From NCBI GenBank assembly GCA_964035545.1, contig OZ037770.1, positions 9,678,973 to 9,742,972 on the forward strand: DNA of 64,000 bases, given 5' to 3'. Positions 17,201-20,200 of the stretch are shown in pieces. The notes under the pieces were generated by a model. The model ran no database searches. It saw only the letters and a list, made by a program, of their open reading frames with translations, and was not told the origin of the DNA. Made by a program: the position numbers and the translations under genes. Position 1 is the first letter of the stretch. Each line of letters begins with the position of its first letter. The DNA is from Bugula neritina (lineage: Eukaryota > Animalia > Bryozoa).

Positions 17201-20200
17201 GTATTCAAAGTTGACTTGAATTAGTAGTTGCAGTAAAATACTGTTATAAGTAAAAGTAAAACTTTAAGCTACAAATTACTAATTAGGGTTCTATCCTGTG
17301 ACAATCTGATCAATAACTGAAGAGCCTGCCTTTAGAATTCACAATTTTATGAGAAATCTATTATAAAGTAAACACATAGCTATAAATTTTATCATGCACC
17401 GACCACACTGGCATTCCAAACTTGTTAAACTCCTAAACATGTTAAATAAACCAAATATTTATTATTAAGTTGAAATAGATAAAAATACTTAAGGAAAGCT
17501 TCAAACTATTACAAATACTAAAAAACAAAACTAACCTGTGCCTCTTTAAGTTAATTCCAATTCAAATTCATTTAAATTTTGTTAATTATATCATTAAAAT
17601 TGATTGTTATTTATGCGATGGCACTTGCATTGCTAGCGGCTACTATTCTACTAACTGTAGGTTCAACGTCTGCACTGAAACATCCGGGCTGCCAAGGCGT
17701 AAAGCCACAGCCAATCAGCAAGGGTGTGCTGTTATCTAATTAATGAATTGACAACTATTGCAGTCGTTGCGTTGCGTATATAGGCGAGAATCACGTGATG
17801 TGATAATCTATTTGAGTGGAACATTACGCTAACGCAACGCTGAATGCTTAATAAACTGTTAGATATTCATTACGTTATGCTGCTTTTACAACTTGAATTA
17901 ATTATGCTATGTGATAACTTTACATACATACATACATACATACATACATACATACATACATATATATATATATATATATATATATATATATATATATATA
18001 TATATATATATATATATATATATATTGTTGTGCGAAGCACAATGTTTGTGTGGGCTTCTAGTGAGCAATATGCATTTAGTCACAAGCAATTCACTGGTAT
18101 TTTCGTGTGTAAGACTTTATTATAAAACTGTAATAAATGGCGTAAAAAATCTCTATAAGTATTAATACTAGGTTACTTTACATCACAGCAAGTATACGCT
18201 AACTAACTAACTAATATAAATTGTTCTGCTTGGCTTCATCCAATAATTGCCAATCACTCTCTGATTGGCAGGGGGATACGCATGAGGCGTAAACCACGCC
18301 CCATTACACCGCCCCCCCAGCAGGAAGCATACCTTCCTGATATGCACCCAAAAAAATAAAAATAAAACAATTTATTACAAAAAAAAACCAAAAAAAAATA
18401 TAAGATCTGAACATCACGTAAGGTGGATATTTCCAAAAGAGCTTACACACTATTGAGCAATCTAGATTGACATGAGAAAAGTATATATATAAAAAAAATA
18501 GTAAAACAGAATATTGCAATCACATGTACGGAGATCGTGCAACACCGACTAGAGACGGTCAGAGGAGGGAAAAAACAGAGAGAGAGATCGTCACCACCTG
18601 CAGGTGTGGATAGTCAGAGAAGTAGAGGGGAAGGATACAGCTGCCATCAGTCTTGATCGCCCCGTTTGAGGAGGGCCACGGAAGCTTTAAGGGTCTTCAT
18701 TTCGGAAGTGGCCGCAGCAACTCTGGGAGTCAACCGTTGAATCTCGGCTTCTAATTCATACATACGGAGCTCGACTTCTTTTACGTTGCGAGCTGTAGGG
18801 GCCTGCCGTTTCGGGGAGGAGGGTCTCCATCGTCGTTTAGAAGAAGGCTGCATCGGAGTAGGGGAAGGGGGAACGTCGTTTTTGGGGTATCTTGACTCGG
18901 TGAAGTAGAACTCGAGGTAGGGTGGATGGACGAGGTATGGTTTGTGCGGGAGGAGAGTGAGACGGCTTGGTAGGTTTTCTATGTCTGGGAGGTCTTGGAC
19001 ACGGTCCGTGAGTGATGATGCGAGGTGAGGGGAATCCGTGTTTGAGCCGTTCAAAGCGGGGGAGATCCTTAATGAAAGGTTTGATTAGATTGAGAAAGGT
19101 GGGGAAGTTGTATTTGTCCACATCGTACAAGTGTCCTACATGGCAGTCCATAGTACGCTGGTGCCTGAGAATGTAGTCCCTGTGGTAACTATATTCACCA
19201 CAGGGACAGAGAGTAGTTAGGAAGTGCTGCGGTACGTGGACACGCAAACGGCGATAGGTGGAGAAGTGCTGCTGACACAGCCTGCAGGTGGTGCATCCGT
19301 CATGGCCGCGGTGTAGTTGAATCAGCTTTTCCGTCTCTGGTGCAACCCAGCTATGCTGCTGAAGTAACACGTCTGGTAGGGAGGTAGGAGGTGTCTCACT
19401 GTTCCAGGCCAGTTCTAATGGTGGCATATCTCCGTAGTCAGGAGAGCGGGTGGCGTCTAAAAGAGCAGAATTATTGTTAGATCGAGTTTGATCTTTACAG
19501 CATAATTCTGATGACAATCGACTGTTACTAGTCTGAGAGTCATGCATCTTTTTATACGGCACTCGAGAGACTGTGTCAGAATGTGTAAACTGACTGAGAG
19601 ACATATTATCAAGCTCCAGATCTAGTAGATCATCCGCCATTACTATGTCCTCGTCGTCATTCACGTGTGACTCTGTCTCCAGTAACTGTGATTCAATCAG
19701 ATCGATTAAATCAGAGTTGACTGAGGTGAGATCTATTTCCATTAGTGGAGTGTTAGATCTAAGCAAGCTTACCTGGGAACTCGGTATTTATACTCATACT
19801 CGACGTTCAAGCTTGGATGCAGATGGATTAGAAAGTACGTCTACTCTTGACCGCGTCGGCGTAGGAAAAGGCTGGGCAGCGTGTTTGTTCTGCGAGACCG
19901 GAAATGTGTGCCCGGAGAGTGGTAATTCCACTCGCTATTCCGTTTTCGCAAAACTTGGTTTTTCCGTGGTGTTCATAACTCCCACGCTTTGCTGCCAGTC
20001 TTTCCGTACGGCGCCCAGCTGGACTTTCATACCTGCCGCTTGTAATGCGGTCGCATACGAAATTTTGAAGATAAGCTGGGGGTCTTCTAGTACGTTGTCC
20101 CTTTTCAAGGAGGGGAGATGTACTAGTGGTGGTGTAGCTGGTGAGGGAGGTGGTGTACTCACCAGTGGGTTGTTATTCTCCACTGGTGGTGCTTCCTGCC

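Follow-up and report, generated by a model that had tools for sequence, protein, structure and literature searches.

A conserved zinc-finger third open reading frame with a transcription-factor-like layout in a Ty3/Gypsy retrotransposon of the bryozoan Bugula neritina

A 64,000-nucleotide stretch of the Bugula neritina genome (contig OZ037770.1, positions 9,678,973 to 9,742,972; hereafter the window) carries a 7.4-kb Ty3/Gypsy retrotransposon on the minus strand, and behind the pol gene of this element lies a third open reading frame (ORF), hereafter ORF3, whose conservation and likely role are considered here. The element is flanked by long terminal repeats (LTRs) with TG...CA ends and has a primer-binding site, a polypurine tract, and a 4-bp target duplication. 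Pfam domains for protease, reverse transcriptase (RT), RNase H, integrase (H2C2 and rve), and SH3 were found in Gypsy order between the two LTRs. The insertion is embedded in a (TA)n run, a sequence that makes up 1.2% of the window, with ATAT on both sides; because the target duplication lies within (TA)n, its length is ambiguous. The element is a young but defective copy: the LTR pair shows one difference in 283 bases, gag-pro is interrupted by an in-frame stop within the protease (23870–23868), and frame shifts occur in the integrase tail and in ORF3; all three are either lesions or assembly errors.

ORF3 is a sense ORF (19742–18647, minus strand) that occupies the env slot, between the integrase-bearing pol and the G-rich polypurine tract before the 3′ LTR, as the original prediction had placed it. 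The acidic N-terminus claimed for it was borne out by 17 Asp or Glu residues against a single Lys or Arg over residues 1 to 60. Finger 1, which had been called perfect, is an exact C153-x2-C156-x12-H169-x3-H173 and follows the classical C2H2 pattern (C-x2-4-C-x12-H-x3-5-H). The second finger, described previously as C-x-C-x12-H, was found at C179-x-C181-x12-H194, to which we add C200 as the likely fourth ligand; this cysteine is kept in 97% of 30 close rows and 42% of 53 distant rows. The Pfam model zf-C2H2_4 scored only 14.9 bits, with a cut-off of 27. The three KR(R) clusters reported in the basic tract are present, but two of them lie after the frame break and not, as had been stated, before it. 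In agreement with the earlier claim, no segment hydrophobic enough for a signal peptide or a transmembrane segment was found in ORF3 or in 10 intact relatives; the best 19-residue Kyte–Doolittle mean was 0.66 in this copy and ranged from 0.51 to 0.96 across this copy and the 10 relatives. The ORF3 product is not of the env type.

A protein search returned 90 relatives among 506 candidates, 45 to 83% identical and none of them named. A single ORF of about 365 aa had been predicted, and relatives do carry chains of 355 to 383 aa through both halves (11 of 15 aligned relatives, chosen mostly by length). With tblastn, both parts of ORF3 were matched in one chain by 38 of 231 stored proteins, 37 of them in the expected two frames; 28 of the 38 two-part chains come from the initial search for relatives. 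These two-frame single chains, together with the aligned relatives, indicate that only in this copy is ORF3 broken near 18870. An ME start was found in 42 of the 90 relatives and an upstream extension in only one, and ORF3 is therefore a stand-alone ORF. No host orthologue was named among the 90 relatives, and 20 clusters that were examined gave nothing beyond "hypothetical protein". Two possibilities left for checking by the original prediction thus fared alike: ORF3 is family-wide rather than a captured host exon unique to this copy, and it matched no annotated family in the libraries searched. Scans of metagenome, genome, and viral contigs yielded nothing usable on the flanking DNA of the relatives.

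Silent changes account for 8 of the 10 listed ORF3 differences, against an expected fraction of 0.34 (p = 0.004), a count that comes from a small, tool-chosen sample (the 10 ORF3 sites in the 40 listed rows out of 1329) and weighs less in favor of a functional role for that reason; elsewhere in the element, 5 of 16 differences in pol and 4 of 7 in gag are silent. With this silent-biased change, ORF3 looks to be under selection. Contigs from four sequencing runs (at most three samples from two studies) cover ORF3 at a depth within the range of gag, although read depth does not equal copy number. An 810-nt contig from run X2 covers 18301–19110 and thus extends from the tail of ORF3 past the polypurine tract, and the relative P0225 apparently continues, as judged by eye, from the helix across the polypurine tract into LTR-like sequence. 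The interval 19458–19695 was the deepest-covered bin of ORF3 in all four runs. A block within this bin, at residues 66 to 95, is more conserved than the zinc core (0.86 versus 0.78) though it is predicted to be disordered, and it may serve as a cis-element or as a short binding motif.

The two fingers lie in a core domain that extends well beyond the close relatives. Using residues 128–239 as a query, we found 138 representatives at E ≤ 0.001, of which 129 were new; 101 of these 129 matched the core profile over at least 70 positions at 40 bits or more, a test that is partly circular. Five of the 129 with a low or no core-profile score (P0146, P0151, P0194, P0195, and P0218) were set aside as generic. 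The domain signature comprises W-x4-T, C-x2-C..H-x3-H, an aromatic strand, C-x-C-G, S-R-D, H-Q, and [YFH]-x-V-D, and the metal ligands are retained at approximately 30% identity. Among the 53 distant rows, the basic residues on the first helix are kept at frequencies of 89% (K/R164), 68% (R165), and 60% (R167), and those of the R188-D189 pair on the second helix at 75 and 70%, respectively. For the core domain, no Pfam family reached its cut-off, and zf-C2H2 models rarely scored among the relatives. ESM Atlas returned unnamed clusters and generic C2H2 families only, a profile built from distant members returned just two of its own rows, and a single viral locus did not match the core profile. 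P0092 and P0113 carry the core domain twice in one chain.

The AlphaFold2 model of the core is compact (approximately 120 aa; predicted local distance difference test (pLDDT) 94.1, predicted template modeling score 0.84), and its residues from about 32 to 82 align to tandem DNA-binding fingers in VIA-align. Kaiso (5vmu; Z 3.4, root-mean-square deviation (rmsd) 2.7, 57 aligned) and ZBTB20 (9kh2; Z 3.1, rmsd 2.3, 50 aligned) were among these matches, which count as tied within 1 Z and, as ties, carry no functional information. Finger 1 resembles the fingers of Kaiso, ZBTB20, SALL4, and CTCF in its pattern, and the two modeled fingers are placed relative to each other much as in those proteins. 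In finger 2 of ORF3, however, the CxC loop is a single residue long, a TGEKP-type linker is missing, and the fingers are packed in a 120-aa domain with unmatched extra strands and helices. Sequence and fold searches of the Protein Data Bank (PDB) matched the finger pair only; the lack of a PDB match for the rest of the domain is not proof of a new fold. The core is confidently predicted to be an unnamed zinc-binding module, in which the modeled finger pair would have the geometry of DNA-bound tandem fingers.

Some of the relatives join this domain to other parts of a Gypsy polyprotein. P0199, P0231, and P0206 are single chains of 833 to 1208 aa that combine a Gypsy aspartic protease (37% identical to that of the element) with the zinc domain and lack any RT or integrase domain in between; they are possibly non-autonomous elements that have retained ORF3. 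A pol-tail match in frame ahead of the zinc domain was found in P0116 (0 of 200 shuffles; 59 proteins tested), and the same test gave weaker signals in P0177 (2 of 200), P0210 (3 of 200), and P0213 (9 of 200). In P0160 the zinc domain also lies behind a pol-tail-like stretch in the same frame, with P0116 alone being a clear case. Fused forms of much greater length (1139–3250 aa) were looked for and not found, which is weak evidence.

The regions on either side of the core keep their character in most of the close and distant members that could be scored. The N-terminus has a net charge of at most −5 in 18 of the 26 close proteins and in 20 of the 24 distant ones, that of the finger region is at least +2 in 24 of 26 and 24 of 24, and that of the tail is at least +5 in 22 of 26 and 17 of 24, respectively. 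The model of P0008, an intact natural relative, consists of a short N-terminal helix, a disordered region of low confidence (residues 18–119), the core, a disordered basic tract, and a C-terminal helix of 49 residues (316–364) with a pLDDT of approximately 90; a two-copy prediction of this helix scored 0.23, against a mark of 0.32. RKRR-type clusters occur in 9 of the 10 intact relatives, each of which has three to six SP/TP motifs. An acidic disordered region, paired fingers, import-like clusters, and a long helix make up the usual plan of a transcription activator. These results support the view that ORF3 is a genuine accessory ORF of about 365 aa, shared across the family, different from env, and laid out like a transcription factor.

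Upstream of ORF3, the TATA box claimed in the original prediction, TATAAATA, was confirmed at 19792–19785, and an initiator-like motif follows it. This TATA-initiator pair arose in 0.3% of local shuffles (p = 0.003), which makes an internal promoter for ORF3 plausible; the predicted RNA would carry a leader of 18 nt, with the AATAAA at 18121 as its possible end. A high-depth 283-nt contig from run X1, possibly the source sample, covers 19537–19819 with three differences. The donor-like site CAG/GTAAGC is present with its GT at 19772, as reported earlier, but the significance attached to it did not hold: the element has three donor-like sites of at least 8/9 versus 1.8 in shuffles, and 136 of 500 shuffles were as high. 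The site lies upstream of the predicted start at 19760 and would therefore be absent from the predicted transcript. Pyrimidine-rich acceptor-like sites at 18598 and 18549 (interval 18549–18640), after the ORF3 stop, were likewise not above chance (114 of 500 shuffles). An arrangement with ORF3 inside an intron, between the donor at 19772 and either acceptor, was demoted to a lead by these shuffle controls. A search of Rfam gave no match within the element.

Table 1. Features of the Ty3/Gypsy element and of ORF3; positions are those of the window
Feature	Position	Strand	Remarks
5′ LTR	25156–25438	−	283 nt; TG...CA; (TA)n flanks with ATAT duplication; 1 difference from 3′ LTR
Primer-binding site	25137–25154	−	behind 5′ LTR; presumably of tRNA-Leu type
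gag and first half of aspartic protease	23868–25103	−	ends at in-frame stop inside protease
pol: remaining protease, RT, RNase H, integrase, SH3	19935–23867	−	ORF and Pfam
Likely true pol tail	19828–20172	−	other frame in this copy; stop 85 nt before ORF3; contains what we take to be the Gypsy pol-end motif
TATA box of predicted internal promoter	19785–19792	−	TATAAATA; sequence match
Splice-donor-like CAG/GTAAGC	19767–19775	−	chance level; upstream of predicted start
Initiator-like YYANWYY	19756–19762	−	predicted start A 19760, 32 nt after TATA box
ORF3, first piece	18837–19742	−	301 aa; ATG 19742, stop 18837; acidic predicted-disordered N-terminus, core, Pro/Arg-rich tract
Core domain	19020–19379	−	compact; ORF3 residues 122–241
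Finger 1, C-x2-C-x12-H-x3-H	19224–19286	−	motif match
Finger 2, C-x-C-x12-H-x5-C	19143–19208	−	motif match
ORF3, second piece	18647–18868	−	behind the break near 18870; carries basic clusters, SP motifs, and a long predicted helix (about 18790–18650)
Polypurine tract	18309–18318	−	G-rich; ahead of 3′ LTR
3′ LTR	18026–18308	−	AATAAA at 18121

At the other end of the element, the interval 25072–25120 contains an upstream ORF of six codons, whose stop overlaps the gag ATG, and a donor-like AG/GTAAG lies 31 nt into gag. Elsewhere in the window, a 714-aa ORF (25698–28782, plus strand) has motifs that we take to be of the Penelope type, with no Pfam match; its duplicated 3′ part adjoins the (TA)n run around the Gypsy element. 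Long repeats, dispersed and in both direct and inverted orientation, with 82 to 98% identity were found at 30190–40700 and 50776–59651, and at 362–2964, 41485–44686, and 47326–49287, and a near-perfect tandem array of a 25-nt unit occupies 60924–61673.

It is very probable, in our judgment, that ORF3 encodes a functional nucleic-acid-binding protein of the element. For its specific role we favor, tentatively and at somewhat short of even chances, a nuclear DNA-binding regulator that activates the element's own transcription in the manner of Tas. The gene for Tas (Bel1) of foamy viruses lies just upstream of the 3′ LTR and has an internal promoter, and its product binds DNA and drives the LTR (PMC10534306). 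ORF3 occupies a comparable slot before the 3′ LTR behind a predicted internal promoter and may by analogy have a similar activity; Tas comes from a retrovirus, whereas ORF3 comes from a Gypsy retrotransposon. In the proposed mechanism, a short mRNA would start near 19760 from the TATA box and end at the poly(A) signal of the 3′ LTR; the basic clusters would bring the protein into the nucleus, the C-terminal helix would oligomerize it, and the fingers would recognize a target in either the LTR or the internal promoter. Coactivators would be recruited, or silencing countered, by the acidic N-terminus with its scattered leucines, and the element would thereby gain a feed-forward switch like that of foamy viruses.

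Several results weigh against this Tas-like role. C2H2 fingers bind RNA and protein as well as DNA, and in ORF3 both finger 2 (C-x-C-x12-H-x5-C) and the linker FLTTL, found in place of a TGEKP-type linker, are non-canonical. The fold matches are weak, none having Z ≥ 5, and Foldseek against the PDB and viral models gave nothing at E ≤ 0.001; Tas was absent among the viral fold rows shown, and no direct pairwise comparison was made. A TATA-initiator pair arises somewhere in 43 of 500 shuffles of the whole element, and a contig from X2/X4 (one sample) skips 19724–19793, with loose ends at 19723 that show a different leader; the leader of that relative therefore differs. The LTR and the internal-promoter region share one 9-mer, which is about the chance level, and no common site was found. 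The link of the distant members to Gypsy is direct only for the three protease fusions and P0116 and is weak for three more, and the in-frame fusions to protease or pol tail in some relatives would suit a particle-borne role.

The main alternative, which we regard as fairly unlikely, is an RNA adaptor like Rev or CERV that would bind the unspliced genomic RNA through its fingers and arginine-rich tract, oligomerize, and promote nuclear export or block splicing. Its precedent is CERV of the Caenorhabditis elegans element Cer1, a nuclear Gypsy protein of 517 aa with a leucine zipper, a KRKK cluster, a candidate export signal, a cysteine finger with a C4 loop, and a G-protein-like domain, which is required for export of genomic RNA and is reportedly dispensable for transcription (PMC10309623). 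The ORF3 product resembles CERV as an accessory protein, not an Env, that an animal Gypsy element encodes, with a basic cluster, a metal finger, a probable zipper, and a probable nuclear location, but CERV is encoded by five exons shared with gag, of which ORF3 gives no sign; ORF3 is a single ORF behind pol with C2H2-type fingers. The RKRR-type clusters and SP/TP motifs of the intact relatives would fit an adaptor, as would an export-like motif (M-x3-L-x2-L-x-L) that is complete in 35 of 46 readable relatives, although its last leucine is Pro or Ser in 11 of the 46. The donor-like site before ORF3 and the acceptor-like sites behind it would also suit such a role, but both are at the chance level reported above, and Rfam had no match in the element. 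In addition, acidic disordered N-termini of at least 100 aa would suit activation domains better.

The same anatomy would also serve for a sequence-specific anti-silencing or host-modulating factor of the VANC kind, or a repressor that limits the element, rather than a classical activator; we consider this unlikely. VANC21 and VANC6 of the Arabidopsis VANDAL elements, transposon-encoded accessory proteins that act on their own family, provide a precedent for family-specific anti-silencing (PMC6719617), but they belong to plant DNA transposons. The methyl-CpG reader Kaiso tops the tied fold matches, which, being tied, say nothing about function, and the element showed no tandem target motif.

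A particle-borne integration-targeting or pre-integration factor, which would tether integrase to (TA)n or other chromatin in the manner of a chromodomain, is quite unlikely. The insertion within (TA)n, the AT-rich-DNA fingers of SALL4 among the tied fold matches, and the zinc domain in frame behind the pol tail (P0116 and, weakly, P0177, P0210, and P0213) or the Gypsy protease (P0199, P0231, and P0206) would agree with it. However, the (TA)n targeting that the original prediction had offered as a possibility is weakened by the finding that the 412, gypsy, and Idefix clades of the Drosophila Gypsy group all have ATAT/TATA target motifs (PMC3276498), so that integrase suffices to explain them. 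Moreover, the argument is based on one insertion site, ORF3 in this clade is separate from integrase and has its own ATG, and neither RT nor integrase domains occur in the protease fusions. It is very unlikely that ORF3 is a passenger that spread with the element, whether as a zinc-finger fragment captured from a host or as a neutral frame: this copy and many relatives are broken and most of the 90 matches are shorter than 355 aa, but pol of this copy is broken as well, the metal ligands persist in distant members, the differences are biased toward silent ones, and neither the 90 matches nor the 20 clusters contain a named host orthologue.

Precedents for parts of this arrangement exist. In Tor3b and Tor4b of Oikopleura, an ORF3 follows pol and has an internal promoter in pol or in the gap behind it, but it encodes a transmembrane Env glycoprotein (PMC4402516). 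In bdelloid LTR retrotransposons the env slot holds varied non-env genes, including GDSL esterases and DEDDy exonucleases, whereas the terms "zinc finger" and "C2H2" are absent from the main text of that report (PMC5408684). LTR retrotransposons of animals are known to have non-env ORF3s, internal promoters of ORF3, and, in CERV, a nuclear accessory protein, and the kind of gene is therefore known in itself. Literature searches, whose scope left aside Repbase, GyDB, Dfam, subscription journals, and supplements, gave no description of a third ORF with C2H2 fingers in any Gypsy element of animals, although Repbase might record one; no such ORF is described in the portions available of PMC12440569 and PMC13524379. 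ORF3 is a real, conserved, uncharacterized accessory gene with an unnamed domain. The wider proposition is that Gypsy elements of a widespread but undescribed animal group form "complex" retrotransposons with their own sequence-specific transcription factor, combining a new double-zinc-finger domain, an internal promoter, and a Tas-like LTR switch; at present we consider it less likely than not.

LTR retrotransposons are generally taken to borrow the transcription factors of their hosts, and self-encoded transactivators are, to our knowledge, so far known from complex retroviruses only. If the Tas-like reading of ORF3 is true, a transactivator layer would have arisen among retrotransposons too, and the element would offer a direct test of self-activation or of resistance to silencing. 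Even if the role of ORF3 is RNA export or targeting, its domain of approximately 120 aa, with about 100 divergent members, may be used as a marker of this group of elements.
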